64,000 nucleotides of DNA from an uncultured Rhodospirillales bacterium (GCA_902777205.1 CACYSU010000005.1:9362-73361); one strand, 5' to 3'; positions 4,995-57,700 are shown, numbered from the stretch's first letter. Notes: a model not told the origin generated them from the letters alone. Program-made: numbers and translations.

Positions 4995-5141
4995 GATGAT
5001 TTCCTTTTGCAATGGATGAAACGATTTTTTCCTTTATAGCAGAAAAAACGGGGAAAGAAAAGTGTTTTTTGTCTATAGACGAAAAAGGCGTTCAAAGCGG
5101 AGATTTTTTCCGGTGTTTTGAAGGGGGTGTGGACGAAAAAA

Positions 5142-6926
5142 CTATTTTTCGGCCGCGTCGCCGCATTTTGAAAAATCGACCTTGAACATGGTGTACGGCG
5201 GCGGGGTGTTGAAATCCTCCGTAATGCCGCAGGGCAGATCCTTGCCGGACATCAGCCGCGTCAGCAAACCGTCGTTCCGCGCTTTTTTGAAAAAGGTGTA
5301 GCGTTTGTTCATGTTGTAAAACAGGTCGGGTTCCGCATCCACTTCCAAAAACACCAAAATGGCCTTGATCCGGTGCTTTTTCATCAGCGCGACGCTTTCG
5401 TCCATATCCAGCGAATACAGCATGAAATGGTCGTCAACGATGCCTTCGATATTGCGGTGATAGGGCGTGCCGACGACCGGTTCGTCCAGTTTCCATATGA
5501 TTTCGGGGCCGCTGGACGTGTCGGACAGAACGGCGCCCTCCCGATCCGGCAGATAGGGGGCGACGGTGTCGATCGGCGGGCGGCGCAGAGCCATCATGCG
5601 GTTGACGGAAATGTAGTTGACCGCCAGATACGCGGCGAACAGGACATAGACGGCGGCCAGAAACGCGCCCTTGACCTTGTCGGAACGGGGCGTTTTGTCG
5701 GCGCGCAGCGAAAAGGCGACGGCCAGAATGTACGGCGTGAACAGCGACGACAGGCGCGCGTACCGGATCGACTTCATCGACAGCAGCGTCAAAAACAGCA
5801 GCGGCGGCAGAACGGTGACCAGCATCGCCCTTTTCCTTGCGGGACAAAACGGCAGCAGCGCGATCCCGATGACAAAAACCAGCAGCGACGGCGCCGATCC
5901 CAAAAAGAATCGCACCCAGTCGCGGACGGAGGGCTGCAGTTCGACGATGTTGTCCGCCCAAATGCCTTTGATGATCGGCGGAAAGTGGGGGGCGAAAACG
6001 ACGGCCGGCGTGAAGCACAGCAGCAGCAATCCGGCAAAAGCCCCCGTCAGAAACGCCAGCGCGCCCGCCCTGCGCCAAAAGGAACCGAGCATCCCCTTGT
6101 CCTGCATCAGGGACAGCAGGATCATGGCGGCGGCGGTGAAACCGGCGACGACGACCGTCAAAAAGGACAGCCGCCCGTTGTCGGGGTTGAAGAAACCCTC
6201 GAACGGCGGATTGACGGCCAGACATAGTAACGCCGCCGTGAAATAGTAAAAGCAGAAAACGGCGCAGGCGCGGGCGGAAACCTTTCCCGCCATGAACAGA
6301 ACGGCCAGACCGGTCAGCAACCCGTAGCAGATCAGAATGCCTTCGATTGATGTCCACAGCCCCAGCGCGGCGGCGACGCCCGCGATCCGCAGGTCTTTTT
6401 CATCGTCCGTGAACAGGAAGCGAGCCAGCCCGCCCGCCGTGACGAAACAGAAAAAGGCCGTCAGGGCGTGGTGGTCGGGTTTGATCAGGATGTACGTTTC
6501 CGTGACCGACGGCTGCACGAACAGCAAACACACGGCGATCAGCCGCACGATCGGCCCGACGGCCGGCCGCAGCCCCCAGACCAAAGCGACGGCCGACAAG
6601 GCCAGAACGCCCGTTTGGAAAATGTATCCGCCCCAGAACACGGCTTCTTTCAACGGGAAAAATAAAAAGGCGGGGAGCGAGAAAAACAGCCAGAACAGAT
6701 CCGTGATTCGCGTGAAATGCAGCACTTCGCCGAACGGATAGTTGGAATGCATATACGGCGTTTCCGCCCAGTTTTTCGATTGCAGGAAATCCAGCACGCG
6801 GCGGGCGTGGGTGTAGTTGTCCGTGTCCGGATACCAATCCCCCAGTTCGGGCAGAACCGCCAGCTGGGAAATCAGGACGAACAGGGCGATCAGCAGATAT
6901 TCGTGCTTTTTATAGAAAGCGTACAT
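5142..6926 (-). CDS. GT-C fold polytopic membrane glycosyltransferase (ArnT/PMT- or STT3/PglB-like); substrate unknown
   Basis: 594 aa with more than 10 predicted TM helices and a soluble C-terminal domain. The first extracytoplasmic loop carries DWYPDTDNYTHARR, a DxD...Y...R motif reminiscent of GT-C donors that use polyprenyl-phosphate sugars. Confidence 0.5.
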   Translation of the reverse strand: MYAFYKKHEYLLIALFVLISQLAVLPELGDWYPDTDNYTHARRVLDFLQSKNWAETPYMHSNYPFGEVLHFTRITDLFWLFFSLPAFLFFPLKEAVFWGGYIFQTGVLALSAVALVWGLRPAVGPIVRLIAVCLLFVQPSVTETYILIKPDHHALTAFFCFVTAGGLARFLFTDDEKDLRIAGVAAALGLWTSIEGILICYGLLTGLAVLFMAGKVSARACAVFCFYYFTAALLCLAVNPPFEGFFNPDNGRLSFLTVVVAGFTAAAMILLSLMQDKGMLGSFWRRAGALAFLTGAFAGLLLLCFTPAVVFAPHFPPIIKGIWADNIVELQPSVRDWVRFFLGSAPSLLVFVIGIALLPFCPARKRAMLVTVLPPLLFLTLLSMKSIRYARLSSLFTPYILAVAFSLRADKTPRSDKVKGAFLAAVYVLFAAYLAVNYISVNRMMALRRPPIDTVAPYLPDREGAVLSDTSSGPEIIWKLDEPVVGTPYHRNIEGIVDDHFMLYSLDMDESVALMKKHRIKAILVFLEVDAEPDLFYNMNKRYTFFKKARNDGLLTRLMSGKDLPCGITEDFNTPPPYTMFKVDFSKCGDAAEK

Positions 6927-6992: not shown

Positions 6993-8417
6993 TTACCCGT
7001 TGCCGCCGACGGTGATTTTGGAAATGCGCACGGACGGCTGGCCGACGCCGACGGGGACGGTTTGTCCGCCTTTGCCGCACGACCCGACCCCCTGATCCAA
7101 ACAGGCGTCGGTCGCGACCATGTCGATTGCGTTCATGACTTCGATCCCGCTGCCGATCAGGGTGGCGTCCTTGATCGGGGCGGTGATTTTTCCGTTTTCG
7201 ATCAGGTACGCTTCGGCCGAAGTGAACACGAATTTGCCCGACGTGATATCCACCTGTCCGCCGTGGAACGATTTGGCGAAAACGCCCTTTTTCACCGAAG
7301 CGACCAGTTCGTCGGGATCTTTGTCCCCCGCGGTCATGAACGTGTTCGTCATCCGCACCTGCGGGGCGCAGGCAAAGGATTCGCGCCGCCCGTTGCCCGT
7401 CGGGGCGCGGTTCGTCAGCCGCGCGTTCAGCCGGTCAAGCATATAGTTTTTCAAAATGCCGTCTTCGACCAAAACGGTGCGCTGGGACGGCGTGCCCTCG
7501 TCATCGACGGCGATCGACCCGCGGCGGTCGGGCAGGGTGCCGTCGTCAACGATCGTGATGCCCTTTGCCGTGACCTGTTCGCCCGTTTTGCCGGAAAAGA
7601 CAGAGGATCCCTTGCGGTTGAAATCGCCCTCCAATCCGTGGCCGACGGCTTCGTGCAGCAAAACGCCGCACCATCCGGAACTGAGGACGACGGGCATTTC
7701 GCCGGCGGGGGCGGGGACGGATTCCAAATTGACCAAAGCGGTACGCAGCGCTTCGTCGGCGGCGGATTTCCACACGTTTTCAGCGATGATCCGGTCGTAC
7801 AGGTAACGGCCGCCCAACCCGAACGAACCGCTTTCCAGCCGGTCGCCGTTTTTCACGACGACGCTGATCATCAAATTGACCAGCGGGCGGATGTCGCCGG
7901 ATTCGCCGCCGTCCGCGCGGATGATCTCGACGGCCTGCCATTCGCCGGACAACGCCGCGGACACTTGCGCGACTCTGGCGTCTTTGGCGCGCAGATAGGC
8001 GTCGATTTCCCCCATCAGCGCGACCTTGCGTTCAAAGGGGACGGGCGACAGCGGGTTTTCGTCGGTATATAGCTTTTTCGGCGCGGCGCTGGCGGGGGAA
8101 TACAGCGTTCCGTTCCACCCCGCCTTGACCGGCGCGATGCTGCGCGCGGCGTGTTCCAACGCGTTTTGCGTCAATTCGTTTGAAATGGCGTAGGCGCAGG
8201 TTTCCCCGCAAATCGCGCGCAATCCGAATCCGGCCGTCGCGTCGAACGACGACGTTTTGATCCGCCCGTCGTCCAGCGTCAGCCGTTCGGACAGGCAATG
8301 TTCCAAAAACAGTTCGCCGTCGTCGCATCCGGCCAGCGCGTCTTGAACCGTTTTTTTCGCGCGATCCTTATCCATTTGATTAAAAAGCAAATTGTCGGCG
8401 ACGGTCAAATCGGTCAT
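6993..8417 (-). CDS. tldD: Metalloprotease TldD
   Basis: 474 aa with an HEAVGHGLEGD zinc-binding motif and full-length TldD/PmbA-family similarity. The C-terminus reads GQPSVRISKITVGG. Confidence 0.9.
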   Translation of the reverse strand: MTDLTVADNLLFNQMDKDRAKKTVQDALAGCDDGELFLEHCLSERLTLDDGRIKTSSFDATAGFGLRAICGETCAYAISNELTQNALEHAARSIAPVKAGWNGTLYSPASAAPKKLYTDENPLSPVPFERKVALMGEIDAYLRAKDARVAQVSAALSGEWQAVEIIRADGGESGDIRPLVNLMISVVVKNGDRLESGSFGLGGRYLYDRIIAENVWKSAADEALRTALVNLESVPAPAGEMPVVLSSGWCGVLLHEAVGHGLEGDFNRKGSSVFSGKTGEQVTAKGITIVDDGTLPDRRGSIAVDDEGTPSQRTVLVEDGILKNYMLDRLNARLTNRAPTGNGRRESFACAPQVRMTNTFMTAGDKDPDELVASVKKGVFAKSFHGGQVDITSGKFVFTSAEAYLIENGKITAPIKDATLIGSGIEVMNAIDMVATDACLDQGVGSCGKGGQTVPVGVGQPSVRISKITVGGNG

Positions 8418-8492
8418 AACGTTTCCTTTCTTTTTCGGGAATATCTGTTATATTTAGAACGATTCGCAAAAAAATGCTTTAAGAAAAAAGCG

Positions 8493-8502
8493 TTCGCGCG
8501 AA
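8493..8502. promoter_or_regulatory. Perfect 10-bp palindrome TTCGCGCGAA flanked by an A-run and a T-run in the tldD/motA divergent intergenic region
   Basis: AAAAAAGCG-TTCGCGCGAA-TTTTTTT lies 40 nt upstream of the motA ATG. No gene ends here, so it is more likely an operator than a terminator. Confidence 0.25.
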
Positions 8503-8544
8503 TTTTTTTAACAGAATGTTTCTAAAAAAGCAGGAGCTTTCATC

Positions 8545-9396
8545 ATGTTTCCCTTGATCGGCATTTTGGTTGTCGTCGCCAGCGTCGCGGGCGGTTACGC
8601 GTGGGGCGGCGGGCATTTCGGCGTGTTGTGGCAGCCGGGCGAGTTTTTGATCATCGGCGGCGCGGCGTTCGGCGCGTTTTTGATATCCAACCCGCCGTCG
8701 GTCGTTTTCGCGACGTTCAAAACGCTGCCCCGCATATTCGCCAAACCGCGCTATGACAAAAAAAGCTTTTCCGAAGCGCTGGCGATGCTTTACGCCTTTT
8801 TCCGGCTGGCGCGGGCGAAAGGCAACATGATGTTGGAACAGCATATCGAAAAACCGGAAAACAGCGACATTTTCAAACAGTTCCCCCTGATCACAAAGGA
8901 CGCGGAGGCCATGGATTTCATGACCGGCTATATGCGGCTGCTGACGTTCGGGACGCTGGCGCCGCACGAGGTCGAATCCGTCATCGACGCGGAAATGGAG
9001 GGGATACAGCATGAAAAGGAATCGCTGGCCGCCGGTTTGAACCGTGTCGCCGACGCTTTGCCCGGATTGGGCATCGTCGCCGCGGTTTTGGGCGTCATCC
9101 ACACGATGGGCGCGCTGAACGAACCGCCCGAAGTGTTGGGCAACCTGATCGGCGCGGCGCTGGTCGGAACGTTTTTCGGCGTGCTGATGGCCTACGGCTT
9201 TGTCGCGCCGCTGTCCGCGGCCGTCGCCAACGTGTCCAACCCCGAACTGGAATACCTGAATTTGATTAAGGCCGCTTTGATGGGGCATATTCAGGGCTAC
9301 GCGCCGCAGGTGTCGGTCGAATTCGCGCGCAAATCCCTGCCGCCGGAGGTGCGCCCGACCTTCGCCGAAATTGATGCGATTTGTGAAAAGCTCTGA
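8545..9396 (+). CDS. motA: Flagellar-type motor stator protein MotA (MotA/TolQ/ExbB channel family)
   Basis: 283 aa. GGHFGVLWQPGEFLIIGGAAFGAFLISN is near-colinear with E. coli MotA (GGSLGALYQPAELVIIAGAGIGSFIVGN). It has four TM helices and a cytoplasmic loop. The RBS is AGGAG. Confidence 0.85.
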   Translation: MFPLIGILVVVASVAGGYAWGGGHFGVLWQPGEFLIIGGAAFGAFLISNPPSVVFATFKTLPRIFAKPRYDKKSFSEALAMLYAFFRLARAKGNMMLEQHIEKPENSDIFKQFPLITKDAEAMDFMTGYMRLLTFGTLAPHEVESVIDAEMEGIQHEKESLAAGLNRVADALPGLGIVAAVLGVIHTMGALNEPPEVLGNLIGAALVGTFFGVLMAYGFVAPLSAAVANVSNPELEYLNLIKAALMGHIQGYAPQVSVEFARKSLPPEVRPTFAEIDAICEKL

Positions 9397-9407
9397 CGCG
9401 GGAGGGT

Positions 9408-10265
9408 ATGGTTATGGCTGAAAACGGGGAACGGCCGATCGTCGTCAAACGCGTGAAAAAAGGCGGGCACGACGCCCACGGCGGATCGTGGAAAGTCGCC
9501 TACGCCGATTTTATGACGGCGATGATGGCGTTTTTCCTGTTGATGTGGATTTTGCAGACGACATCCAAGGAGCAGAAAGAGGGCATCGCGCAGTATTTCA
9601 CGACGGGGTCGGTGATGAATTCGTCCACGTCGGGCGGCGACACGATTTTGACGGGCGGTCAGGAATCTTTGGAAACCGCCGCCGCGCCGCAAGCCTTGCC
9701 CTTTGTCGGTTTCGACGGGTCGAACGAATTTCCCGTCCTTTCCCCGCAGCGGGAACGGCTGGTCGAAAAGGAAAAAGAGCTGTTCGGCCGCGCCCGCATC
9801 GCGTTGGAGGAAGCCATGCGTTCCGACGCCGATTTGATGGAACTGCACGACAGTCTGGTCGTTTCCGAAACCAAAGAGGGATTGCGGATTCAGCTGATCG
9901 ACCAGCTGAACCGCCCCCTGTTCGTCAGCGGATCGGACGAACTGACCCCGAACGGGGCGCGTCTGACGGGGTTGCTGGCGCGCGTGTTGAAACAGATGCC
10001 TCATTCCCTGTCGATCGAGGGGCACACCGACGCCGTCCCCTTCGCCGGCAAGAACGGGTATTCCAACTGGGAACTGTCGTCCCAGCGGGCTTTGGCGTTC
10101 CGGCGTCGGCTGATCAAACTGGGCGTCGCGGAGGAAAAGATCGTCCGCGTCGTCGGCAAGGCATCCACCGAACCGTATTTGAAAAACGATCCGCAGGCGC
10201 CGCAGAACCGCCGGATCAGCGTTTTGCTGCCGTCGTTGGTGACGGATGAAAAGGACGACGATTAG
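9408..10265 (+). CDS. motB: Motor stator protein MotB (OmpA-like peptidoglycan-binding domain)
   Basis: GGHDAHGGSWKVAYADFMTAMMAFFLLMW is the canonical MotB plug/TM region and includes the conserved Asp. The C-terminal OmpA-like domain contains NRRISV. The RBS is GGAGGG, and the gene lies 12 nt after motA. Confidence 0.82.
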   Translation: MVMAENGERPIVVKRVKKGGHDAHGGSWKVAYADFMTAMMAFFLLMWILQTTSKEQKEGIAQYFTTGSVMNSSTSGGDTILTGGQESLETAAAPQALPFVGFDGSNEFPVLSPQRERLVEKEKELFGRARIALEEAMRSDADLMELHDSLVVSETKEGLRIQLIDQLNRPLFVSGSDELTPNGARLTGLLARVLKQMPHSLSIEGHTDAVPFAGKNGYSNWELSSQRALAFRRRLIKLGVAEEKIVRVVGKASTEPYLKNDPQAPQNRRISVLLPSLVTDEKDDD

Positions 10266-11374
10266 GGATTTTTATCCGGAACGATGTCAATGACGACGTA
10301 TTCGGATTTGGTGCCCGTTTTAAATTTGATCGCCCAATCGGACAGTCCCGACGTGACGATGAAATCCGTGTTTTCGCGACGCTCGAACCCATAAGTTTTG
10401 TCGTTCGCGCCGATCCATACGCCGACATCGTTCAGCGGGAAAATCTGCCCGCCGTGGGTGTGTCCCGACAGCACCAGATCGACGCCGGATTCCGCCTGCT
10501 TTTTATAATCGTTCGGCTGGTGATCCAAAACGGCGGCGTATTTCGACCGATCCAAACCTTTGACCAAACCGGCCATTTCCGCCCGTACGCCGCCGCGGTA
10601 TTTTTCGCCAGCGTCCTGCCGCCCGATCAAAACGATGTCGTCGCGGATCGGGGCGGTTTCATCCTGCAAAACGGTCACGCCGTTCTTTTCCAATTCGGCG
10701 ATCAGGTCGTCGCCCGTGAAACCGCGGCGTTTCGGATCGTAATACCCTTTGTCGTGATTGCCGAAAACAAAGAAAACGCCGTGCTTCGTTTTCATTTCGC
10801 CCAACGCTTCGGCGGCCGCGACCATATCGGCGCGGGAGGTGCCGTCGTCAACGAAATCGCCGACAATGACGACGACATCCGGATTTTCGGTCTGCATGGT
10901 TCGGATGTGTTTGGCGAATCCTTTGCCGTCAAACGTCGTGCCGATGTGCGAATCGGCGAATTGGACGATGCGGATCGGGGCGGAAACTTTCGGCGACGCA
11001 ATCGTGTAGCGCGTCGCCCACACGCCGTGGTCAAGCGCCCAGCCCGCCGTCAAAACGGCAACGCTGAAAACGACGGCAACCCAACCGGCGTAATAACGCT
11101 TTTGCGGTTTTTTGAAAAACAGGGCGGCAAAGTCGCAGATCAGCCAGACGCCCGTGAAATGGATCAGGCAGACGATCGCGTTCATCGTGTTCAACACGGC
11201 GCACAAAACGCCGAACAGGGCGGCGACGGCCATAAAATCGAATGTGTAGGCCAAAATCCGCTTGTCCGTGAATTTGCGCGACATGCCGAATTTGTACAGA
11301 CGGGACGCCAGATATAAAACGCCGAAGGCGGTTGCAATCATTGTAACGGTAAAGATGACCAGCCACATTTTCAT
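10262..11374 (-). CDS. Membrane-anchored calcineurin-like metallophosphoesterase
   Basis: N-terminal TM helices are followed by the metallophosphatase motifs QFADSHIG, GDFVDDG, GNHD and GHTHGG. Its start overlaps the stop of the upstream polyferredoxin gene as ATGA (11371-11374). Confidence 0.8.
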   Translation of the reverse strand: MKMWLVIFTVTMIATAFGVLYLASRLYKFGMSRKFTDKRILAYTFDFMAVAALFGVLCAVLNTMNAIVCLIHFTGVWLICDFAALFFKKPQKRYYAGWVAVVFSVAVLTAGWALDHGVWATRYTIASPKVSAPIRIVQFADSHIGTTFDGKGFAKHIRTMQTENPDVVVIVGDFVDDGTSRADMVAAAEALGEMKTKHGVFFVFGNHDKGYYDPKRRGFTGDDLIAELEKNGVTVLQDETAPIRDDIVLIGRQDAGEKYRGGVRAEMAGLVKGLDRSKYAAVLDHQPNDYKKQAESGVDLVLSGHTHGGQIFPLNDVGVWIGANDKTYGFERRENTDFIVTSGLSDWAIKFKTGTKSEYVVIDIVPDKNP

Positions 11375-12642
11375 TTTTGCAAAATCCTTTGTTCAAAAAC
11401 GGGTTCGACGAAAATCGCCTGAACGGGGCAGGCGTTTTGACACGCGCCGCATCCGACGCATTTGTCCGCGCTGATGCGGGGCGGTTCGCCGTCCGCGCGT
11501 TCGATGATTTGGCGCGGGCATTTCATGACGCACAGGCCGCACCGGACGCACGCGTCTTCGTCCACGCGCGCCACGCCGATCTGCGTTCTTTGCTTGACGG
11601 GCAGGGGCAGGCGTTCAATCGCGCCGGACGGGCAGACATCGCCGCATTCGTGACAGTCGAAAGCGCAGAAATTGTTTGAAATGTCCAGATGAACGGCGGG
11701 AAAGTTCCCGTCCGCCTTTTTCAAAATCTTCATCGGGCAGTTTTGAACGCACAGATTGCAGTTCAAACACCGGTTCGCCAGCCTTTGCGCGTTTTTCGCC
11801 CCCGCGGGCAGCAGGACGTTTTTGACTTTGGCGAACGCCTTTTTGCCCAACGCCGCGCCGCCGCCGATCATGGCCGCGAACAACGCCGCCGCCGCGCCCG
11901 CCCGCAGCATTTCGCGGCGATCCGGATCGGTCGGGGCGTCGCTCTTTGCCGCCTTGCCGTAGCGCAGGGCTTTCCTGCGGCAGGTGTTCAGGCATTTGAA
12001 ACATTTGACGCACGTTTCGTTGTCAACGGTTTTTGATTTGAAATCAATGCATCCCGCGGGGCATTTCATCGCGCACAATCCGCACGACACGCATTTGTCC
12101 GCGTCAACGGCGATTTTGCTGCGGGCGTGTTTGGAAATCAGCCCCAGCACCGCGCCGACGGGACACAGGTTCGTGCAGAACCGCCGCCCCTTGAACCAGA
12201 CCAGAACGGCCAAAACCGCCAGAAAGACCAGACCGAACGCCGCGCCCGACACCGCCGACACGAACATCGTGTAGGGTTCGATTTGCCGTAAAACCAGCGC
12301 GGAACCGCCGATCGTCGCGCCGAACGCCGCCGCGGCGATGAAATATTTGTACGCGCGGTTCTTTTGCGGTTTTTGTTTGCGGCGGAAAACGATCGTCAGC
12401 AGTTCCTGAAACAATCCCAGCGGGCAGACGGTCGAACAATACACCCGCCCGAACACGGCGGTGACGATTAAAACACCCGCCAGAACCACCGCCGCGCCCC
12501 ACGAAAACGCGGTCAGGTTCCTTTGGAACACGGCGGAAAACTGAACGTCGAACACTTTGACGGGATAAAACGCCCCCGTCATGCCGCCGACCAGCAGAAC
12601 GGCGATCAAAGCGGCGCAAATCAAACGGATTTTATACAGCAT
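11371..12642 (-). CDS. Membrane-bound polyferredoxin of the NapH/MauN/CcoG family (multiple 4Fe-4S clusters)
   Basis: Two CxxxCP motifs sit in the TM region (CSTVCPLG, CTNLCPVG). Six CxxCxxCxxxC(P) ferredoxin motifs follow: CVSCGLCAMKCP, CVKCFKCLNTC, CLNCNLCVQNCP, CHECGDVCP, CVRCGLCVMKCP and CVGCGACQNACP. I prefer the start at 12642 (MLYKIRL...) because AAGGA sits 8 nt upstream. The ORF track extends to 12684. Confidence 0.75.
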   Translation of the reverse strand: MLYKIRLICAALIAVLLVGGMTGAFYPVKVFDVQFSAVFQRNLTAFSWGAAVVLAGVLIVTAVFGRVYCSTVCPLGLFQELLTIVFRRKQKPQKNRAYKYFIAAAAFGATIGGSALVLRQIEPYTMFVSAVSGAAFGLVFLAVLAVLVWFKGRRFCTNLCPVGAVLGLISKHARSKIAVDADKCVSCGLCAMKCPAGCIDFKSKTVDNETCVKCFKCLNTCRRKALRYGKAAKSDAPTDPDRREMLRAGAAAALFAAMIGGGAALGKKAFAKVKNVLLPAGAKNAQRLANRCLNCNLCVQNCPMKILKKADGNFPAVHLDISNNFCAFDCHECGDVCPSGAIERLPLPVKQRTQIGVARVDEDACVRCGLCVMKCPRQIIERADGEPPRISADKCVGCGACQNACPVQAIFVEPVFEQRILQK

Positions 12643-12653
12643 GGCTTTAATCC

Positions 12654-13310
12654 TTACAAACCGCACAAAATCGCCGCGCCGCACGCCATGATCGTGCCGC
12701 CCGCGATTTCATGGGCGTATTGTTCCAAACGTTTGAAACGCATCGCGCTGATGCCCAGAACGCCGAACGCGACGGCGATCATCATCGTGGCGATGGTCGC
12801 GACGGAAAAGATGAGCGTCGAGGAAACGACGGCGGAAATGCCCATGACGCTGGCCGCGGTCAGGATCGGCAGCAACGCTTCGCACGGGCCCAGAACGAAA
12901 ATGATGAACAGCACCCAGACGGAAACGCTTTTGCCGTCGGCGGGGGTGATGAAATGCGTGTGTTCCGCGCCGTGTTTGTGCTGCCAGCGGTGTTTCAGCG
13001 CCCACAGCAGGTACGCCGCGCCCAGCCCGATCAGGGCGTAGGCCGCGATGTCGCCGCGGTTGTCTTCGATCCACATGAAATTTTCTTCGCTCAGCCAGCG
13101 GGAAAAGTAAATGAACGCCAGCGCGATCATCAGCGCGCTGACAATATGCCCGATGCCGCACACGAACGTCAGCGCCAGCGTTTTTTTCAGGCTGTATCCG
13201 CGGATCTTGCCAATGGCGACAAAGGGCAGGTAATGGTCGGGACCCGTTATCGTGTGAACGACCGCCGTTAAAAACGCCGTCGCCCACAAAGCCGTCAAAG
13301 TTGCCGTCAT
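12654..13310 (-). CDS. Putative Ni/Co transporter-like membrane protein (NicO/RcnA/UreH-like, with a His-rich loop)
   Basis: 218 aa with about 6 TM helices. It has a GPDHY motif near TM1 and a central His-rich loop (KHRWQHKHGAEHTHF), typical of Ni/Co permease or efflux families. I inferred the family from motifs only. Confidence 0.45.
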   Translation of the reverse strand: MTATLTALWATAFLTAVVHTITGPDHYLPFVAIGKIRGYSLKKTLALTFVCGIGHIVSALMIALAFIYFSRWLSEENFMWIEDNRGDIAAYALIGLGAAYLLWALKHRWQHKHGAEHTHFITPADGKSVSVWVLFIIFVLGPCEALLPILTAASVMGISAVVSSTLIFSVATIATMMIAVAFGVLGISAMRFKRLEQYAHEIAGGTIMACGAAILCGL

Positions 13311-14119
13311 AATTCATTTCCTTTCAAATCAAAATCAAAGCATCCGGAACGGAATCCGTCCAGATCCAAAGTCGTAAAGTCGAATCCCAGCCGTTTCATT
13401 TCCGCGGCGATTTCCGCGGCGCGCGCGGCCAAGGCCGGAATCGCGGGGGCGGACACTTCAATCCGCGCCAGATTTTTATGAACGCGCAGACGCACGTTTT
13501 GAACGTCGGGGAACAGATGTTTTAAAAACGCCTCGCCCTTTTCCACCCGTTCGATCGCGTCTTCGGTCAAAACCGTGTCGTATTCAAACCGCGTCGCCAG
13601 ACACGGGGCGGCGGGTTTCGACGCGGTCGGCAGCCCCAGCCGCGCGGACAGGGCGCGAATGTCGGCCTTTGAAAATCCCGACAGCGGGGAAAGGATTCCG
13701 GATTCCCTCAACGCCTTGCGTCCGGGGCGGTAGGCGTGCGCGTCGTCGCCGTTCGTGCCGTCGATGACGTGTTTGAACCCGTGTTCCGCCGCGTATGCCA
13801 GAAATTGGCCGAAAACCGCCTTTTTGCAATGATAACAGCGATCGACGCGGTTGCGGCGCACTTCGTCGATCGACAGCGGGTTGAACGTGAAAACGCGATG
13901 TTCGACGCCGAACCGTTCGGCAAAATCGGCGGCTTCGGCGGATTCGGCGGGCGGCTGCAGCACCGTCCGCATTGTCAGCGCGACAAGGGGGAACGGCCGT
14001 TCGCGCCGCATATCCGCCAGCACCGCCAGCAAAAGCGAGCTGTCAACCCCGCCCGAAAACGCCAGCGCGATTCCGTCGGCGCAAAGTGGTTCCAGCCGTT
14101 GTTTCAACGCGTCAAGCAT
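13307..14119 (-). CDS. larE: ATP-dependent sacrificial sulfur transferase LarE (PP-loop ATP pyrophosphatase)
   Basis: Contains the PP-loop SGGVDSS and the conserved catalytic Cys in AAPCLATRF. It is 270 aa. Its start overlaps the larC stop by 8 nt. Confidence 0.85.
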   Translation of the reverse strand: MLDALKQRLEPLCADGIALAFSGGVDSSLLLAVLADMRRERPFPLVALTMRTVLQPPAESAEAADFAERFGVEHRVFTFNPLSIDEVRRNRVDRCYHCKKAVFGQFLAYAAEHGFKHVIDGTNGDDAHAYRPGRKALRESGILSPLSGFSKADIRALSARLGLPTASKPAAPCLATRFEYDTVLTEDAIERVEKGEAFLKHLFPDVQNVRLRVHKNLARIEVSAPAIPALAARAAEIAAEMKRLGFDFTTLDLDGFRSGCFDFDLKGNEL

Positions 14120-15350
14120 TGTCGTTTTCCTTTGCCGCGCGCCGCGCCGCGTCGAAAATTTCGCGAAACGGCAGGCCGCAGGATTCCGCCGCCCGTTTGA
14201 CGCTTTCGTATTCGGGATTGTAGCGCGCGATGTCGCCCAGCGTGCATTTTTTGACCTCTATTTCGCCGCAGGGCAGGGCGACGCGCACGATTTCGCGATC
14301 CATGCACCGCCGTTCCACCGCGTATTTGCGCAGCCCGATCGTGGTCGTATTGCGGAAAATGATATCCTCCATCACGGGCAGGCGTTTCGAGGCCGCGACG
14401 ACGCGCAGCATATACGCGGGACGGTTCTTTTTCATAAAGCACGGTTCGAAATGCACGTCCGCCGCGCCCGCCGCGAACAGCTTTTCCATCGCCAATCCCA
14501 GCTCTTCGGCCGTCGAATCGTCAATGTTCGTTTCAATGACGTACATCTGATCCGCGTCCGTTTCGTCGTCGATCAGCATCGCCCGCAAAAAATTCGCGCG
14601 GTGAAAGTCGCGCTTGCCCAATCCGACGCCGGATTTTTTGATCTTGAACGACGCCGGCAGCTTTTCCGCCGTGCGGACGGCCGCGGCGATCGCGATGCCC
14701 GTCGGCGTCACCATTTCCCCGTCAACGTCCGTCGGGCGCAGAGGGACGCCGCGCGATTCGGCGATGTTCAAAACGGCGGGGACGGGCACGGGCAGGACGC
14801 CGTGCTGACAGGTGACGAAACCGCGTCCCTCGTTCAATCCGTCAACGATGACGTTTTTGACGCCCAGATCGTCGATCAAAACGGCGGCGGCGATGATGTC
14901 AACGATGGAATCGACCGCGCCGACTTCGTGAAAATGGACTTCCTCCACCGCGCAGCCGTGGGCTTTGGCTTCGGCCTCGGCGACGATTTGAAAGATTTTT
15001 TTCGCCAGATCGCGCGCCGCGGCGGTGATGTCCGCATGGTCGATGATGTGGAAAACGTCGGCCAAATGGCGGTGTTCGTGAGGGTGATGATCGTGGCTAT
15101 GGTCGTGATCGTGGTCGTGGTCATGGTCATGATCGTGGTGATGTTCCGCGCGCGTCAGCCGCACGTCGAAATCCAGCCCCGAAACGCCGTAGGACGATTT
15201 GCGTTCGACCGCCCAGTCGAATTCCCCCGCGGGCAGGCTGGCCAAAGCGGTTTTCAGCTTTTCGACGCTCGCCCCCAGATCCAGCAAAGCCGCGACGGTC
15301 ATGTCGCCGCTGATGCCGCTTTTGCCTTCCAGATACAGATATTCGGTCAT
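14112..15350 (-). CDS. larC: Nickel-pincer cofactor nickel insertase LarC (DUF111)
   Basis: YLYLEGKSGISGDM N-terminus, the HEVGAVDSIVDIIAA and TTTIGLRKY motifs, and a His-rich stretch (HHHDHDHDHDHDHSHDHHPHEH). I prefer the ATG at 15350, which overlaps the larB stop as ATGA. The ORF track starts at 15377. Confidence 0.85.
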   Translation of the reverse strand: MTEYLYLEGKSGISGDMTVAALLDLGASVEKLKTALASLPAGEFDWAVERKSSYGVSGLDFDVRLTRAEHHHDHDHDHDHDHDHSHDHHPHEHRHLADVFHIIDHADITAAARDLAKKIFQIVAEAEAKAHGCAVEEVHFHEVGAVDSIVDIIAAAVLIDDLGVKNVIVDGLNEGRGFVTCQHGVLPVPVPAVLNIAESRGVPLRPTDVDGEMVTPTGIAIAAAVRTAEKLPASFKIKKSGVGLGKRDFHRANFLRAMLIDDETDADQMYVIETNIDDSTAEELGLAMEKLFAAGAADVHFEPCFMKKNRPAYMLRVVAASKRLPVMEDIIFRNTTTIGLRKYAVERRCMDREIVRVALPCGEIEVKKCTLGDIARYNPEYESVKRAAESCGLPFREIFDAARRAAKENDNA

Positions 15351-16024
15351 TTGTGAATCCTTTGCAAAATTTTGCACGCCTGCACCGCCGCGCCGAAACC
15401 GTTGTCGATGTTGACGACGGAAATCCCTTCGGCGCAGGAATTCAGCATGGTCAATAACGCCGCCAGCCCGTGAAACGACGCGCCGTAACCGACCGATGTC
15501 GGCACCGCGATGACGGGCGCGTCCACCAATCCGGCGACGACGCTTGCCAGCGCGCCTTCCATGCCGGCGACGGCGATGACGACGTCGGCTTGGCGGATCG
15601 CGTCGATTTTCGACAGCAAACGGTGGATGCCCGCGACGCCGACATCAAAGTGCCGGTCAACCGCCGCTCCGAAAAACGCGGCGCAGACGGCGGCTTCCTC
15701 GGCGACGGGCAGGTCGGCCGTTCCGCCCGTGCACACGGCGATCCGGCCGTTCAGGCGTTTTTGTTCGCCGGCGTTCAGCGCGATCGTGCGGGAAGCGGCG
15801 TCGTATCGCGCCGCCACCCCCGCCGATTGAACGAAAGCCGCCTGTTCGGGCGAACAGCGCGTTCCCAGAACCCGACAGCCCTTGTTTGCAAAGGCCGCCA
15901 GTATTTTCGCCAGCTGTTCGTTCGTTTTGCCCGCGCAATAAACGGTTTCGGGCAATCCCGTGCGGTCGGCGCGGGTCGTGTCCAGCTTGGCGAATCCCAA
16001 ATCTTCAAACGCGTTGTCCGTCAT
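15347..16024 (-). CDS. larB: Pyridinium-3,5-biscarboxylic acid mononucleotide synthase LarB (PurE-like)
   Basis: GGTADLPVAEEA, VIAVAGMEGALASVV, VIAVPTSVGYG and VVNIDNGFGAA are the LarB/PurE-like signature blocks. It is 225 aa. Confidence 0.85.
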   Translation of the reverse strand: MTDNAFEDLGFAKLDTTRADRTGLPETVYCAGKTNEQLAKILAAFANKGCRVLGTRCSPEQAAFVQSAGVAARYDAASRTIALNAGEQKRLNGRIAVCTGGTADLPVAEEAAVCAAFFGAAVDRHFDVGVAGIHRLLSKIDAIRQADVVIAVAGMEGALASVVAGLVDAPVIAVPTSVGYGASFHGLAALLTMLNSCAEGISVVNIDNGFGAAVQACKILQRIHK

Positions 16025-16028
16025 GGTT

Positions 16029-17267
16029 TCACCCCTCGAACGTTTTGGCGACTTCTTTCATCCATTGACTGATTTCGATGTGCTGCGGACAATGCTTTTC
16101 GCACATTCTGCACCCGATGCAGGACGACGCCTTGCCGTGTTCCTTGATCAGGTTGGCGTAATACATGCGCTGGGCATTGAACGGTTTGTCCGAACGTTCC
16201 TGCTTTTCCGCGTTGTACAGCGCGAAATAGTCGGGGATCGCGATTTTCATCGGACAGAATTCGACGCAGTACCGGCACGCCGTGCAGGGGATCGCGATTT
16301 CGTCGTGCAAGGTCTTGATCGCTTTTTCGATCGTGCGCGTTTCCGCGTCGTCCAGCGGTTTGAAATTTTGCATATAGGACGTGTTGTCCAACAGCTGTTC
16401 CATATTGCTCATGCCGCTTAAAACCATCATGACGCCGGGCAGGGACGCGACATAGCGGATCGCCCACGACGCGACGGACATATCGGGTTCGGCGTCCTTG
16501 AAAATCTTTTCAACCGACGGGGGTACCATGGCCAGCGAACCGCCCTTGACGGGTTCCATGACGACGACGGGTTTGTTGTATTTCTGCGCGATTTCATAGC
16601 ATTTGCGCGATTGGATGCTGGGGTTGTCCCAGTCGATGTAGTTGATTTGCAGCTGGACGAAATCGACTTCGGGGTGGGCTTTCAACACCTGTTCCAACAA
16701 ATCGGCCTTGTCATGGAACGAAAAACCGATGTTTTTGATTTTGCCTTCTTTTTTCTTCTGCGCGATGAAACCGAAGCAGTCGTATTTGTCAACGTTGGGC
16801 AAAGTCGTCGCGTTGACGTTGTGAACCAGATAGTAATCGAAATAATCCAGTCCCGTTTTTTCCAGCTGTTTGTTGAAAATGGTTTCGCGATCCTCCGCGC
16901 TTTTCAAATAACCGGCGGGCAGCTTGCTGGCGACGGTGAACGTGTTGCGCGGGTGGCGTTTGACCAGCGATTCGCGGATGGCGATTTCGCTTTCATATCC
17001 CATGTACATCCATGCGGTGTCGAAATAGGTGAATCCGCGTTCCATGAACGTGTCCACCATTTTGTTCAGCGTTTCATAGTCGATGGCCGTCTGGTCGTCG
17101 GGGTTTTTCAGCGGCAGGCGCATAAACCCGAACCCCAGTTTGTTTTTGGGGTTGACCTTGTCTTTGACCGATTGCGAAACAGGGATCGTTTCCGCCAGCG
17201 TCAGTTTGGGCAAAGCCGTCAGGGCGAACGTGGCCAGCGTGCTCATCAAAAATTGTCTTCTGTTCAT
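16029..17267 (-). CDS. Tat-exported aldo/keto reductase fused to a C-terminal 4Fe-4S ferredoxin domain
   Basis: The real start is at 17267 ([27 protein letters not shown], a twin-arginine signal) with GGAGG 8 nt upstream. The ORF-track extension to 18305 is an open high-GC frame. The protein has an AKR TIM-barrel ([11 protein letters not shown] ... VMEP) and a C-terminal Cys-rich region ([12 protein letters not shown] ... [12 protein letters not shown]). Confidence 0.75.
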
Positions 17268-17349
17268 ATCGAAACCTCCAAGAATGATATGAAACAGGAT
17301 AGGTTTTAAAGCGAACTTTAAGTCAAGTGTTTTTTTGCAAAAAGGAAAA

Positions 17350-17368
17350 GGGGGCGCGCCCCCTTTTT
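17350..17368. terminator. Rho-independent terminator after rlmI, insulating the upstream edge of the lar operon
   Basis: GGGGGCGCGCCCCC palindromic stem followed by TTTTT, 16 nt downstream of the rlmI stop. Confidence 0.55.
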
Positions 17369-17383
17369 CCAACCGGCCGCGGA

Positions 17384-18592
17384 TCAGTCGATCTGGCAGA
17401 CCAGCATTTTCAAATACGCCGTTTCGGGCAGCAGCGGGTGGACGGGGTGGTCGGGGCCCGCGCCGGCCTGTAAAATGACGCGGCCGGTTTTGCCGGCTTC
17501 GGTCAATCCGCGCATACATTCGGTGAAAAACTCGTCGGGTTTGACATGGTGCGAACACGACCCCAATGCCAGAATGCCGTCTTTTTCCACCAATCCGGCG
17601 GCCAGACGGGCGACTTTGCGGTATCCGCGCAAACCGGCCTGAATGTCCTTTTTGACTTTGGCGAAAGCGGGGGGATCGCAAATCACGACGCCGAATTTTT
17701 CCTTGTCCCTGTTCATATTTTCCAAAACGTCGAAAGCGTTGTCCCTGATCCACGAACATTTGTCCTGCAATCCGTTGGCCGTTGCCGCCATTTGCGCCAA
17801 CGCCAAAGCGTTTTCGGAACGATCGACGCCGATAACCTCTTTGGCGTGGCCGATCCCCGTGTGCAGGGCGAATCCGCCCGCGTAGGTGTAAAAGTCGATG
17901 CACCGTCTGTTCGGCGCCAGACGGCCGACAAAGGAACGGTTTTCGCGCTGGTCGTAAAACCATCCGGTTTTCTGCCCCTCTTTCAAATCGGCGAAAAAGG
18001 AGATGCCGTTTTCGCACACGGGCACAACGTCGGGCAGGGCGCCTTTGGCCACTTCGTACAGCGGATCCAATCCCTCCAGCGCGCGGGCGGAGCTTTCGGC
18101 GCGCAAAACGATGCAGGACGGGCGCAGCACTTCGTCCAGCGCGGCGACGATTTCGTTTTTCAGCGCGTCCGTCCCCGCCGTGTTCAGCTGGCAGGCGACG
18201 ATGTCGTCGAACCGGTCGATGACCAGCCCCGGCAGGCCGTCGCCTTCGGAATGAACCATGCGGTAGAACGGCGAATTGACCAATGCGTCGCGCAATGTGA
18301 CGCACCGGCGGAATTTTTTGGCGAAAAAGGAGGCGTCGATCGCGGTTTGCGGATCGGCCGCCATTTTGCGGAACGAAATCAGCGAATGGGGATTGAACGA
18401 ACCGACTCCGATAAACGTGTCGGCCGCGTCATGCAGGCGAACCAACGTCCCCGCGGGAATGTTTTTGGTTTCGGCGGTCATGTCGATTTCGTTCGAGAAA
18501 ACCCACGGACTGCCGGATTTCGCGCGTTTGGCGCACCCTTGTTTCATCTTTACGACGGGATAATTTGTATTTTTCATGGCGTTTGTGTTCAA
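17384..18592 (-). CDS. rlmI: Class I SAM-dependent 23S rRNA methyltransferase (RlmI/RlmK-like, PUA-like N-terminal domain)
   Basis: 402 aa. An N-terminal PUA-like domain is followed by a Rossmann SAM-binding fold ([18 protein letters not shown]). Confidence 0.7.
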
Positions 18593-18639
18593 CCTCTTTT
18601 AAACTGCATGAAAACGTTTTTAACACGACAGAGGCGCAA

Positions 18640-20679
18640 ATGCCAAAAAAAGAAATAACTTTTTCCGCCGGCGACGTTCTGTTCAAACAGGGCGACCCGT
18701 GCACGTCGGTTTACACGATCGTTTCCGGCAAGGCGGAGCTGTTTTACGAAATCAACGGCAAAGCCCGCGTTTTGGGGCGCAAGGGCGAAGACGACCTGCT
18801 GGGCGCGAACAGCGTGTTGGAGGGGGCTTACGACACGGCGGCGCGGGCGGTGACCGACCTGACCGTCACCGTGCAAACCGCGGACGAATATATCGAACAG
18901 CTGCAGCGGTCGGGCGAATTGTCGCCGTCGGCCGGCGCGCCCGCCAAAGTGTCCGCGTCTTTTGACGGCGGCGATGACGACGACGACTTTTCATTCAGCT
19001 TCGGCGGCGATGACGAAGAGGAGGAGGAAAAGCCCGCGCGCCGTTCCGGCCGACCGCCGCGTTCCGCCGTGCCGCGCCGCGGCAGGTCAACGGCCGTGAC
19101 GCGGACGGATATGGCGGAGGATGAAGAGGACGAACCCGCGCCGGTCAAGGGCAAATCGTCCGCTCTGGTTCATGTGGAAAAACCGAAGCCGGCCGCCGCG
19201 CCCGTCGTTTTAAAGCCGGTCGTCCTGCCGGCCGAAATTAAAAAATCGCCGATCCGCGAATGGCTGCGCGAAGGGGCGGACGAAACACCGTCGTTCGGCG
19301 CGGTCGTTTTGCTGGCCAGCATCGCGGGCGACGACGACGGATCCGTGCGCGACGACATTTTCCGCACTTTGCGTCAAATCCCGAATATGCAGGTCACGGT
19401 CGTTGACAAGGCCGTCGCCGATTCCGACGTCCGCCGCGGGGCGATGCAGGTGCGCGCGTGGCTGGAACAGCACACCGCGGACGCGGGGTTGTACGCCGTT
19501 TTGGACAACGCGGGGCGGGTGTTGGAATTTCACACGGTGCGGCCGGTTTCCGGCAATGAAAGCGCGCCGTTTTCCGCCGGAACGCGCTTTTTCCTGCCCG
19601 TGCGGATGAGCGACGAGCAAAAAACGCTGCTGAAGATATTCACGGTGTGCGCGCTGACGCCGACGCGGTTGGAACACGAACAGTTGCTGCGACTGTTCGT
19701 GCCGTCCCTGATCGGCGAAGTCGCCGCCTACGCGTCAAAGCCGATGGTCGGTTTGACGCCGGAGGAACAGGCCGTCAACCTGACGGCGTTCGCGAACGTC
19801 CTGTCGTGGATCAGTTTCATGACGCCCGAGGAAAACCGCCAAAATCAGGCCGCCGCACTGTATGAACAGGCGTTGACCCTGCTGCCGGCGCACGCGCCCG
19901 AATACGTGTTCGTCAACCGTCAGGTCGGGTTGCTGCGCCAGTTGGAGGGCGAACGCCGCGACAGCGTCGAAGCCTTTAAAGTCGCCGAGGAAACGTTCCG
20001 CAAAGGGTTGGCGGCGGTTTCGGAAAAATACCAGCCGGCCGCTTTTGCCGATTTGAATTTGCGCATCGGCAACGTGCGCCAGAAAATCGCCCTGCAAACC
20101 GGCGACGGTGAGGATTTTTCCGCCGCGATGACGGCGTACCGCGACGCGCTGAAAGTGTTGAAGCCGTCGGGCGACGCCGAACGGTGGGCGGACACGGTCA
20201 ACGGGTTGGCGCGCACGATGCAGCTGTTTTCGTCCTACAGCACGAAAACGACGCTGTTGAAAAAGGCGGTTGAGCTGTATGAAAAAGAGCTGAGCGTTCT
20301 GGACAGGGACGAACATCCGATGCTGTTCGGGCGGGCGTGCAACAATCTGGCGTCGGCGCTGTTCCTGTTGTCGGACAGGGAGGGCGGCAAGCCCGATCTG
20401 CTGCGCCGCGCGGTCGAAGTGTTTTCCGACGCTTTGCGGATTTACGACAGGGCGGGGGCGCGCCGGATGGCCGATGTCGCCGACAGCAACCTGAAACGTG
20501 CGGAACGGGCATTGGCGCGCACGGAAAAGGAATTGGAAAAGAACAAAAACTGGCTGGACGACATTTTGAACGACGGCGGCGAAACGGACGCGGACGCGGA
20601 TACGAATACGGACGCCCCCGCCGAAGAACCGCTGACCTTTGAACGCATTGCCGTGTTCGAGGAATTAGACGACGAATAA
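18640..20679 (+). CDS. Multidomain protein: N-terminal cNMP-binding domain, acidic/basic disordered linker and a C-terminal TPR-like helical domain
   Basis: The ATG at 18640 begins MPKKEITFSAGDVLFKQGDPCTSVYTIVSGKAELFYEINGK, a Crp-type cyclic-nucleotide-binding fold. A DDDDDFSFSFGGDDEEEEE linker and an Arg/Pro-rich segment follow, then a roughly 400-aa helical-repeat region. I recognise no named family. Confidence 0.6.
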   Translation: MPKKEITFSAGDVLFKQGDPCTSVYTIVSGKAELFYEINGKARVLGRKGEDDLLGANSVLEGAYDTAARAVTDLTVTVQTADEYIEQLQRSGELSPSAGAPAKVSASFDGGDDDDDFSFSFGGDDEEEEEKPARRSGRPPRSAVPRRGRSTAVTRTDMAEDEEDEPAPVKGKSSALVHVEKPKPAAAPVVLKPVVLPAEIKKSPIREWLREGADETPSFGAVVLLASIAGDDDGSVRDDIFRTLRQIPNMQVTVVDKAVADSDVRRGAMQVRAWLEQHTADAGLYAVLDNAGRVLEFHTVRPVSGNESAPFSAGTRFFLPVRMSDEQKTLLKIFTVCALTPTRLEHEQLLRLFVPSLIGEVAAYASKPMVGLTPEEQAVNLTAFANVLSWISFMTPEENRQNQAAALYEQALTLLPAHAPEYVFVNRQVGLLRQLEGERRDSVEAFKVAEETFRKGLAAVSEKYQPAAFADLNLRIGNVRQKIALQTGDGEDFSAAMTAYRDALKVLKPSGDAERWADTVNGLARTMQLFSSYSTKTTLLKKAVELYEKELSVLDRDEHPMLFGRACNNLASALFLLSDREGGKPDLLRRAVEVFSDALRIYDRAGARRMADVADSNLKRAERALARTEKELEKNKNWLDDILNDGGETDADADTNTDAPAEEPLTFERIAVFEELDDE

Positions 20680-49079: not shown

Positions 49080-49207
49080 ATAAATTCGCCTTTACCTCTG
49101 TTGCGAAAAAACGCACACGAAAAACCGCCGGAAACAATCCGGTGATCTTGCACTTTTTAGTTTTTTGCCAACCGTTTGTCAACCTTTAAATAATAAGGCG
49201 ACATCCG

Positions 49208-57661: not shown

Positions 57662-57700
57662 GGCTTTAGACTATGGCTTATATCGTTTGAAAAATCAACC

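Follow-up and report, generated by a model that had tools for sequence, protein, structure and literature searches.

The window, as we call the 64,000-nucleotide (nt) stretch of DNA analysed here, comes from an uncultured Rhodospirillales bacterium (GCA_902777205.1, CACYSU010000005.1:9362-73361) and carries on its minus strand, from 17267 down to 10262, seven genes arranged head to tail (Table 1). Three of them, larB, larC and larE, code for the biosynthesis of the nickel-pincer nucleotide cofactor. The first gene, directly upstream of larB, encodes an aldo-keto reductase (AKR) with a C-terminal ferredoxin domain, hereafter AKR-Fd, and the remaining ones encode a 218-amino-acid (aa) membrane protein, a membrane polyferredoxin and a metallophosphoesterase. 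Our analysis designates AKR-Fd as the most likely client of the cofactor made by the Lar proteins, and we consider it probable that the operon constitutes a self-contained nickel-pincer oxidoreductase system, in which this client is exported and linked to the polyferredoxin. The initial annotation of the locus had pointed to a different, possibly undescribed, client of the cofactor, or else to a new route of cofactor maturation.

A client other than LarA has already been described in the AKR superfamily. NphT from Alicyclobacillus cellulosilyticus (PDB 9YEB), published in June 2026, is a nickel-pincer-mononucleotide-dependent hydride transferase that was discovered by looking for larB/C/E with no larA up to 20 open reading frames (ORFs) away, a search that returned 427 co-occurring AKRs (Semersky et al., Nat Chem 2026; PMC13524815). 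In this enzyme Lys200 binds the cofactor covalently (thioamide tether, 450 Da) and His144, in a T142-x-H144 motif, ligates nickel; the enzyme has the tetrad D47, Y52, K75 and H106 and carries out a redox-neutral intermolecular hydride transfer between sugars, and the equivalents of His144 and Lys200 are absent from characterised NAD(P)H-dependent AKRs (PMC13524815). NphT thus establishes that a His/Lys pair can hold the cofactor in AKRs whose genes lie beside larBCE where larA is missing (PMC13524815). A pocket too small to take the AMP half of NAD(P) counts among the marks of the NphT type. The AKR-Fd gene is found in the same situation, 4 nt upstream of larB and with no larA in the 64-kb window.

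The AKR-Fd protein matches PF00248 with 168 bits, in addition to Fer4 families. A twin-arginine signal precedes its aldo-keto reductase TIM barrel, and a domain with two [4Fe-4S] motifs (2x[4Fe-4S]) forms the C-terminus. Over the AKR domain, the AlphaFold2 (AF2) model reaches pLDDT values of 80-97, and Foldseek matches it to canonical AKRs with a TM-score of up to 0.76. The AKR catalytic tetrad corresponds to D83, Y88, K115 and H149, all four invariant in 81 orthologues. H185 lies two residues past the beta-5 serine S183, itself aligned with the Ser of the canonical GVSNF motif, and is present in 81/81 orthologues and in 150/151 family representatives. K241, at beta-7, follows the hydrophobic V240 (compare I199 before K200 in NphT) and is also found in 81/81 orthologues, S183-x-H185 and V240-K241 being invariant as pairs across the whole set. 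Finally, H185 and K241 are separated by 56 residues, exactly as His144 and Lys200 are in NphT. We propose, from position, that the two pairs are equivalent.

The resemblance between the two proteins extends to the AKR TIM barrel, the D-Y-K-H tetrad and the location of their genes beside larB, larC and larE with no larA in the vicinity, and, as far as position tells, to a His two positions past the beta-5 Ser/Thr and a Lys 56 residues later. They differ in that NphT is a soluble, cytoplasmic, monomeric and redox-neutral protein of ~290 aa, whereas AKR-Fd has 412 aa, a signal for the twin-arginine translocation (Tat) pathway and 2x[4Fe-4S]; unlike NphT, it is also accompanied by a membrane polyferredoxin as putative partner, which would imply a net exchange of electrons outside the cytoplasm. 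The main text of the NphT article mentions none of the terms ferredoxin, 4Fe-4S, iron-sulfur, signal peptide, periplasm and fusion (PMC13524815). A literature search on AKR/4Fe-4S fusion proteins returned nothing relevant, and another found neither a preprint nor a second paper on NphT. A non-LarA AKR client was thus already known; AKR-Fd is most likely an AKR of the NphT kind, with the iron-sulfur fusion, the predicted Tat export and the proposed polyferredoxin partner as what is new. The idea of a different client stands in so far as it is not LarA and is probably AKR-Fd; it falls short as to novelty, AKR clients being known from NphT (PMC13524815).

The lar genes and their association with AKR-Fd

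The cofactor pathway encoded in the operon is complete, as initially annotated. LarB carboxylates and hydrolyses nicotinic acid adenine dinucleotide (NaAD), giving pyridinium-3,5-biscarboxylate mononucleotide, LarE is an ATP-dependent sulfur insertase and LarC a CTP-dependent nickel insertase. In the profile search that the initial annotation had suggested, all three proteins score above the curated NCBIfam cut-offs: LarB with NF033503 (289 bits, cut-off 175), LarC with both TIGR00299 (199 bits against a cut-off of 90) and NF052512 (139 bits against 50), and LarE with TIGR00268 (255 bits, cut-off 150). LarC also matches PF01969 with 446 bits. The larC product is a single 412-aa protein in which the LarC1 and LarC2 parts are fused, with a His/Asp-rich stretch. 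LarE has the PP-loop SGGVDS from residue 22, a CYHC motif from C95 and a PC motif at 172 that provides the third cysteine, C173. A LarE with a CXXC-C motif, as known from Thermotoga maritima (PMC9283937), depends on a [4Fe-4S] cluster and is not sacrificial; judging from these motifs the enzyme of the operon is of this common catalytic type. In the lar operon of Lactiplantibacillus plantarum (larA, larB, larC1/C2, larE, larQO/MN), too, a complete LarB/C/E set goes together with a nickel transporter and a client, in co-transcribed genes. There, however, the client is LarA and not an AKR-Fd, larC1/C2 take the place of a single fused larC, LarE is of the sacrificial single-Cys type, and the transporter is an energy-coupling factor (ECF) system instead of the unnamed 218-aa six-helix protein proposed here. 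We found nothing in favour of a new maturation route; LarB, LarC and LarE are ordinary.

The reported absence of LarA from the operon and from the window was borne out. L. plantarum LarA, verified as identical to PDB 5HUQ, was used as a tblastn query (E<=1e-3) and had no match in the 64-kb window or in 82 related loci. The sensitivity of this search was adequate, since in a plasmid collection the same query recovers LarA proteins that share as little as 27% identity with it. In addition, none of 27 large ORFs scanned in the window matches DUF2088/LarA in Pfam; the 20 of them outside the operon show only housekeeping genes by Pfam, for example uvrA, topA, dnaG, prfC, dprA and thrC.

The locus is 98% identical to that of the metagenome-assembled genome (MAG) "Alphaproteobacteria bacterium UBA6324" and is present in two other assemblies, while orthologous loci occur in dozens of uncultured gut and rumen Alphaproteobacteria. 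To describe its conservation we used 80 species-representative AKR-Fd loci (75-98% identity), of which 52 are well flanked, with at least 6 kb on each side, and located the neighbouring genes by homology mapping. The larB-larC-larE genes follow AKR-Fd on the same strand in 26/52 well-flanked loci, and AKR-Fd directly precedes larB in 35 related loci; LarA is found in 0/52. The most constant neighbour is the polyferredoxin, adjoining AKR-Fd in 41/52; less frequent are tatA and tatC (39/52; PF02416, 61 bits, and PF00902, 187 bits) and a signal-bearing Flavodoxin_4 protein (32/52). The phosphoesterase accompanies AKR-Fd in only 7/52 loci. The fullest form is a ten-gene cassette (locus L165, 7498-16215) made of AKR-Fd, flavodoxin, larB, larC, larE, the 218-aa protein, polyferredoxin, tatA, tatC and phosphoesterase, of which the operon of the window is a compact form devoid of flavodoxin, tatA and tatC.

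Some further features of these loci were recorded. The tatA/tatC pair always comes right after the polyferredoxin gene and the flavodoxin gene right after AKR-Fd (L165; L009, L025, L030), and 29 loci have the order polyferredoxin-tatA-tatC-AKR. Across species, AKR-Fd is 75-98% identical, against 57-93% for LarC, 47-93% for the polyferredoxin and 34-93% for LarE. The MAG BRZ_CT__bin33 has two AKR-Fd loci: in one (L049, 11378-12065) a shortened larB lies directly against a remnant of the gene for the 218-aa protein, in what looks like a decayed lar block, and the other (L030) has polyferredoxin, tatAC and phosphoesterase but no lar genes.

The association recurs in other lineages. On Clostridium butyricum megaplasmids the order is flavodoxin, larB, larC, larE, an ECF Ni/Co transporter and AKR-Fd in 9/9 records (e.g. 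NZ_CP013238.1, 591856-599465), and none of the 9 contains a LarA. The C. butyricum AKR-Fd shares 58% identity with that of the window, the GFSFHD and MEPVKGG motifs and the eight Fe-S cysteines, and has no signal peptide. The cluster therefore provides the same functional set, namely cofactor synthesis, nickel import and AKR-Fd without a LarA on the replicon; the AKR-Fd is cytoplasmic there, with a flavodoxin as partner and an ECF transporter, whereas here it is a predicted exported protein, with a polyferredoxin and the 218-aa protein. Two contigs add further arrangements: in L163, from a different lineage (8368-14039), flavodoxin and larBCE are joined by AKR-Fd and by a protein homologous to the 218-aa one, and the Firmicute-like metagenomic L158 has AKR-Fd, larE, larB, larC1, larC2 and a NikB-like ABC permease, neither cluster including a LarA. 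AKR-Fd is the sole protein beyond biosynthesis and transport that is common to the arrangements of all four lineages. The initial statement that the cofactor genes are wired to a redox protein other than LarA is upheld.

The same comparison bears on a more conventional explanation, a split lar locus in which LarB/C/E would serve a LarA encoded elsewhere in the genome, with AKR-Fd, the polyferredoxin and the phosphoesterase being unrelated proteins that use conventional cofactors. We judge it improbable. It is compatible with the extent of the LarA search, which covered the window and the 82 related loci, with the half of the alphaproteobacterial AKR-Fd loci that have no lar genes within 10 kb, and with contig L164 (9297-12838), in which larBCE and a homologue of the 218-aa gene occur alone, the lar genes being in that instance separable from AKR-Fd. 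Yet 35 species-level loci have AKR-Fd and larB side by side on one strand, as do three further lineages of different sequence context, cultured C. butyricum among them, and never with a LarA; in the window they are 4 nt apart in a series of overlapping stop and start codons, AKR-Fd possesses the His/Lys motif, and a periplasmic AKR would have no access to NAD(P)H.

As a separate observation, the LarC proteins of L163 and L164 are 64-65% identical to that of the window, amid neighbours of quite another kind (glycoside hydrolases, PFOR and [FeFe]-hydrogenase). These two contigs hint that a unit made of larBCE and the permease has spread horizontally. A recent horizontal transfer of the AKR-Fd gene itself was considered and rejected: its GC content is 52%, but its GC content at third codon positions (GC3) is 0.73, as in the neighbouring genes, so that the low overall value is attributed to amino-acid composition.

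Tat signal, polyferredoxin and proposed nickel supply

The N-terminus of AKR-Fd is a good Tat signal peptide by sequence (N-R-R-Q-F-L-M, then a hydrophobic stretch and a TLA/E cleavage-like site). The arginine pair R3-R4 (RRQFL) is kept in 79/79 orthologues having those columns, and the cytoplasmic AKR-Fd relatives are without precisely these ~40 N-terminal residues. From these features we infer that AKR-Fd is exported by the Tat pathway. The periplasm offers no diffusible NAD(P)H pool to an AKR, and a tethered hydride cofactor is therefore favoured for the exported protein.

The polyferredoxin is a plausible partner on the membrane side. Its N-terminal half contains, besides four transmembrane (TM) helices, a pair each of CxxxCP and [4Fe-4S] motifs and is NapH-like (TIGR02163, 97 bits; NF007013, 97 bits), below the cut-offs of 213-234 (234 for NF007013). 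Its C-terminal half has four cluster motifs and aligns with NapG from the NapG signal peptide onward (PRK09476, 54 bits over residues 250-379, below the cut-off of 269). An internal twin-arginine motif, R242-R243, stands at this point and is invariant in 57/57 orthologues amid variable neighbouring positions. The protein thus looks like a NapH-NapG fusion, with a NapGH-like architecture but without being a member of the equivalog. NapGH and the related NosGH and MauMN are membrane quinol-dehydrogenase/ferredoxin modules that feed periplasmic redox enzymes. The likeness concerns the NapH-like N-terminal half, the NapG-like arginine pair and four clusters of the C-terminal half, and the location of the gene beside that of a redox enzyme with a Tat signal; it differs in that NapG and NapH are separate proteins and not a single polypeptide with an internal arginine pair, and in that an AKR takes the place of the molybdo- or copper enzyme as proposed partner. 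By analogy, the polyferredoxin would connect a periplasmic partner with the quinone pool or else with the cytoplasmic side, and we propose that this partner is AKR-Fd. The pairing of polyferredoxin with a periplasmic, Tat-signal AKR-Fd also recurs in Parabacteroides distasonis.

One may also imagine that AKR-Fd uses the Lar cofactor while remaining on the cytoplasmic side or associated with the membrane, the arginine pair being part of a signal anchor or non-functional and the partner being, as in the cytoplasmic relatives, a flavodoxin or ferredoxin instead of the quinone pool. Most members of the AKR-Fd family are indeed cytoplasmic and encoded beside a flavodoxin, the operon of the window has no tatA/tatC of its own, and some Fe-S clusters of the polyferredoxin are likewise placed on the side predicted to be cytoplasmic. 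We nevertheless find this unlikely: the arginine pair is invariant and followed by the hydrophobic stretch and cleavage-like site, dedicated tatA/tatC genes stand beside AKR-Fd in most well-flanked relatives, and in the alphaproteobacterial relatives and in L163 the flavodoxin found with it has a signal or lipoprotein sequence of its own.

The 218-aa protein had been labelled a transporter by the initial annotation. Its position and motifs fit this label, which remains inferential as no Pfam or NCBIfam model matches the protein, even at E<=5. Accordingly, none of the known nickel permease families (HupE/UreJ, NiCoT, NicO/RcnA, CbiM/NikM) could be assigned, and the protein is annotated as "hypothetical" at NCBI. 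Its AF2 model shows six helices (pLDDT 78), for which Foldseek retrieved nothing significant from the PDB (best E=0.27; CcdA with a TM-score of only 0.33). Invariant residues comprise H19, GPDHYLPF, G52-x-G-H55, GPCE (142-144) and H200-E201, in addition to a His-rich loop; GPDHYLPF and GPCEALLP appear as half-motifs, and the His/Asp/Cys/Glu motifs lie in TM helices. The gene comes directly after larE in 32/35 related loci having larBCE, a homologue (50% identity) follows larE in L163 and in L164, where AKR-Fd is missing, and in the C. butyricum cluster the ECF Ni/Co transporter occupies its slot. Because of the linkage to larE and of the His/Asp/Cys/Glu motifs in the membrane helices, its most plausible role is that of a nickel permease.

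The metallophosphoesterase (PF00149, 51 bits) has four N-terminal TM helices and weak YaeI and LpxG-like matches. By the positive-inside rule its catalytic domain probably faces the periplasm. In the few well-flanked loci where it is present, it occupies conserved positions beside polyferredoxin/tatC.

In the reading that we favour, LarB, LarE and LarC would convert NaAD into the nickel-pincer mononucleotide on the cytoplasmic side, with nickel supplied by the 218-aa membrane protein, and the cofactor would be loaded into the AKR domain of AKR-Fd, with Lys241 as covalent tether and His185 as nickel ligand, as in NphT. The holoenzyme, already folded and equipped with both [4Fe-4S] clusters, would leave by the Tat pathway. 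Once in the periplasm, the AKR tetrad would pass hydride to or from the bound cofactor, with an alcohol or carbonyl compound as substrate, and the Fe-S clusters would swap electrons with the NapH/NapG-like polyferredoxin and, by way of it, either with the quinone pool or with the cytoplasmic side. This flow may run in either direction: the NapGH analogy would suggest quinol to enzyme, and thermodynamics favours quinone being reduced while a sugar or aldehyde is oxidised. In the relatives that possess it, the flavodoxin may mediate between two-electron and one-electron steps. The gene identities, motifs, junctions and synteny are read from the sequence, whereas cofactor binding, export, the electron path and its direction, and the substrate are deduced from them. 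If this scheme is correct, nickel-pincer chemistry would reach into the periplasm and would include net electron transfer from hydride carrier to one-electron carriers or back, a cofactor would be assigned to the very large "aldo/keto reductase / 4Fe-4S" family, abundant in gut anaerobes and so far without an assigned function, and a candidate new family of nickel permeases would be named.

The wider AKR-Fd family

A search of 1.84 billion representatives with AKR-Fd gave 7,635 matches at E<=0.001, of which 1,093 reach E<=1e-30 (clusters at 50% identity). We aligned the best 150 matches with the window protein, i.e. 151 sequences. The position of the proposed tether is occupied by Lys in 107/151 and by Arg in 37/151, all eight Fe-S cysteines are present in ~137/151, and the signal peptide is missing from nearly all of the best 150 matches. 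The His of the SxH motif is thus found in almost all of the best-scoring representatives and the Lys of MEPxKGG in ~70%. It is conceivable, though we advance it only tentatively, that the AKR-2x[4Fe-4S] family (the 1,093 clusters at E<=1e-30) forms a nickel-pincer class, in which the tethered cofactor would exchange electrons with the Fe-S clusters, and these with flavodoxin, polyferredoxin or the quinone pool. Its members would then perform net redox chemistry, as opposed to the redox-neutral hydride shuttling of NphT, and the Tat-exported forms of alphaproteobacteria and Bacteroidota would be the first periplasmic nickel-pincer enzymes, acting as respiratory-type dehydrogenases or reductases. 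The C. butyricum cluster offers a cultured, tractable organism in which to address these questions.

Several observations weigh against AKR-Fd as an exported nickel-pincer enzyme, beginning with the range of the LarA search, the lar-free half of the alphaproteobacterial loci, and the tatA, tatC and flavodoxin genes that relatives carry and the window operon does not, all mentioned above. The equivalence with the His/Lys pair of NphT is itself a prediction from spacing and alignment to canonical AKRs. Among the cytoplasmic relatives of AKR-Fd, lar genes are near only 1/80 metagenomic loci, so that no general linkage of this part of the family to lar was found and the adjacency is specific to some lineages. 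The His and the Lys/Arg are conserved family-wide regardless of lar adjacency and may have another purpose, unless lar genes placed elsewhere act in trans in most of the genomes concerned. In Parabacteroides distasonis (L167, NZ_OY725762.1, 5895-11892), two tandem pairs associate a polyferredoxin with an AKR-Fd bearing a Tat/lipobox signal; this AKR-Fd keeps the His (GWSFHG), has Leu in place of Lys (MEPLLGG) and has no adjacent lar genes. Lastly, we know of no precedent for electron transfer between Fe-S clusters and a nickel-pincer cofactor, and NphT is redox-neutral.

The family-wide conservation leaves room for another explanation, in which another protein of the operon, for instance the polyferredoxin or the phosphoesterase, uses the Lar product or a variant of it such as the dinucleotide NPAD, or in which the His and Lys/Arg of AKR-Fd bind a different prosthetic group without nickel. 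It agrees with the presence of these residues in about 150 family representatives, most of them without lar adjacency, with the recurrence of the phosphoesterase in the full cassette, and with the remark that some AKR homologues might bind NPAD (PMC13524815). We hold it very unlikely, given the rarity of the phosphoesterase among the well-flanked loci (7/52), the absence of the polyferredoxin from the lar/AKR-Fd clusters of C. butyricum, L158 and L163, and the lack of a nicotinamide-type pocket in either protein, whereas AKR-Fd is the one non-biosynthetic, non-transport protein shared by the four lineages.

Operon boundaries and other genes of the window

All the junctions between the seven genes were read in the sequence, and the spacings and overlaps agree with those initially described. 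The AKR-Fd gene ends with a TGA stop separated by AACC (4 nt) from the ATG of larB; larB and larC overlap as ATGA (larC start at 15350), larC and larE overlap by 8 nt (ATGCTTGA), and larE and the 218-aa gene overlap as ATGA. The TAA stop of the latter is followed by 11 nt and then by the ATG of the polyferredoxin gene (12642), which in turn overlaps the phosphoesterase gene as ATGA.

Table 1. Genes, signals and proposed functional residues of the operon (positions counted from the first nucleotide of the window)
Feature	Position	Strand	Length or evidence
Intrinsic-terminator-like hairpin after rlmI	17346..17367	-	9-bp stem, 5 GC pairs, T-rich tail
Shine-Dalgarno GGAGG, 7 nt before AKR-Fd ATG	17275..17279	-	read in sequence
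AKR-Fd (aldo-keto reductase + C-terminal ferredoxin domain)	16029..17267	-	412 aa
Predicted Tat signal peptide of AKR-Fd, residues 1-26	17190..17267	-	N-R-R-Q-F-L-M, hydrophobic stretch, TLA/E cleavage-like site
His185 codon, motif GFSFHD, proposed nickel ligand (compare NphT His144)	16713..16715	-	spacing + alignment
Lys241 codon, motif MEPVKGG, proposed covalent cofactor tether (compare NphT Lys200)	16545..16547	-	spacing
Ferredoxin-like domain, two CxxCxxCxxxCP motifs (Cys328-338, Cys383-393)	16077..16289	-	Fer4 families, alignment
larB	15347..16024	-	NF033503, 289 bits
larC	14112..15350	-	PF01969, TIGR00299, NF052512
larE	13307..14119	-	TIGR00268, 255 bits
218-aa six-helix membrane protein, unnamed family, proposed nickel permease	12654..13310	-	position + motifs
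Membrane polyferredoxin, 423 aa	11371..12642	-	NapH/NapG-like scores, TM + Cys motifs
Internal twin-arginine motif Arg242-Arg243, just before TM5 of polyferredoxin	11914..11919	-	alignment
Membrane-anchored calcineurin-like metallophosphoesterase, 370 aa, last gene	10262..11374	-	PF00149, 51 bits
Weak terminator-like hairpin, 56 nt past last stop, inside 3' end of convergent motB	10190..10206	-	7-bp stem

On the upstream side, the terminator announced between rlmI and the operon is present as a GC-rich hairpin with a T tail, read from 17367 to 17346, and marks the upstream boundary of the operon. Between it and the AKR-Fd gene lies a -35-like hexamer, TTGACT (17326-17321, minus strand); a promoter scan called no minus-strand promoter upstream of the operon. 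On the downstream side, the hairpin inside motB may mark the end of the operon; it is weak, as the number of terminator-like structures over the region does not exceed that of shuffled controls. The stop codons of the convergent motB (plus strand) and phosphoesterase (minus strand) genes overlap by 4 nt at 10262-10265, leaving no intergenic room for separate terminators. No riboswitch, other RNA family or tRNA was detected in the 64-kb window.

Elsewhere in the window, two PmbA/TldD-family paralogues (6993-8417 and 24272-25618) and two HAD-hydrolase paralogues (4005-5012 and 32005-33039) were noted. Three large ORFs belong to no Pfam family: 5142-6926 (-), 594 aa; 47016-49145 (+), 709 aa; and 56390-57892 (+), 500 aa. 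The first of these is also a called gene without Pfam match in the ENA contig L001. Finally, the gene at 18565-20679 (+), divergent from rlmI, encodes a protein of ~680-700 aa with a cyclic nucleotide monophosphate (cNMP)-binding domain and a long acidic, Pro-rich linker of low complexity.

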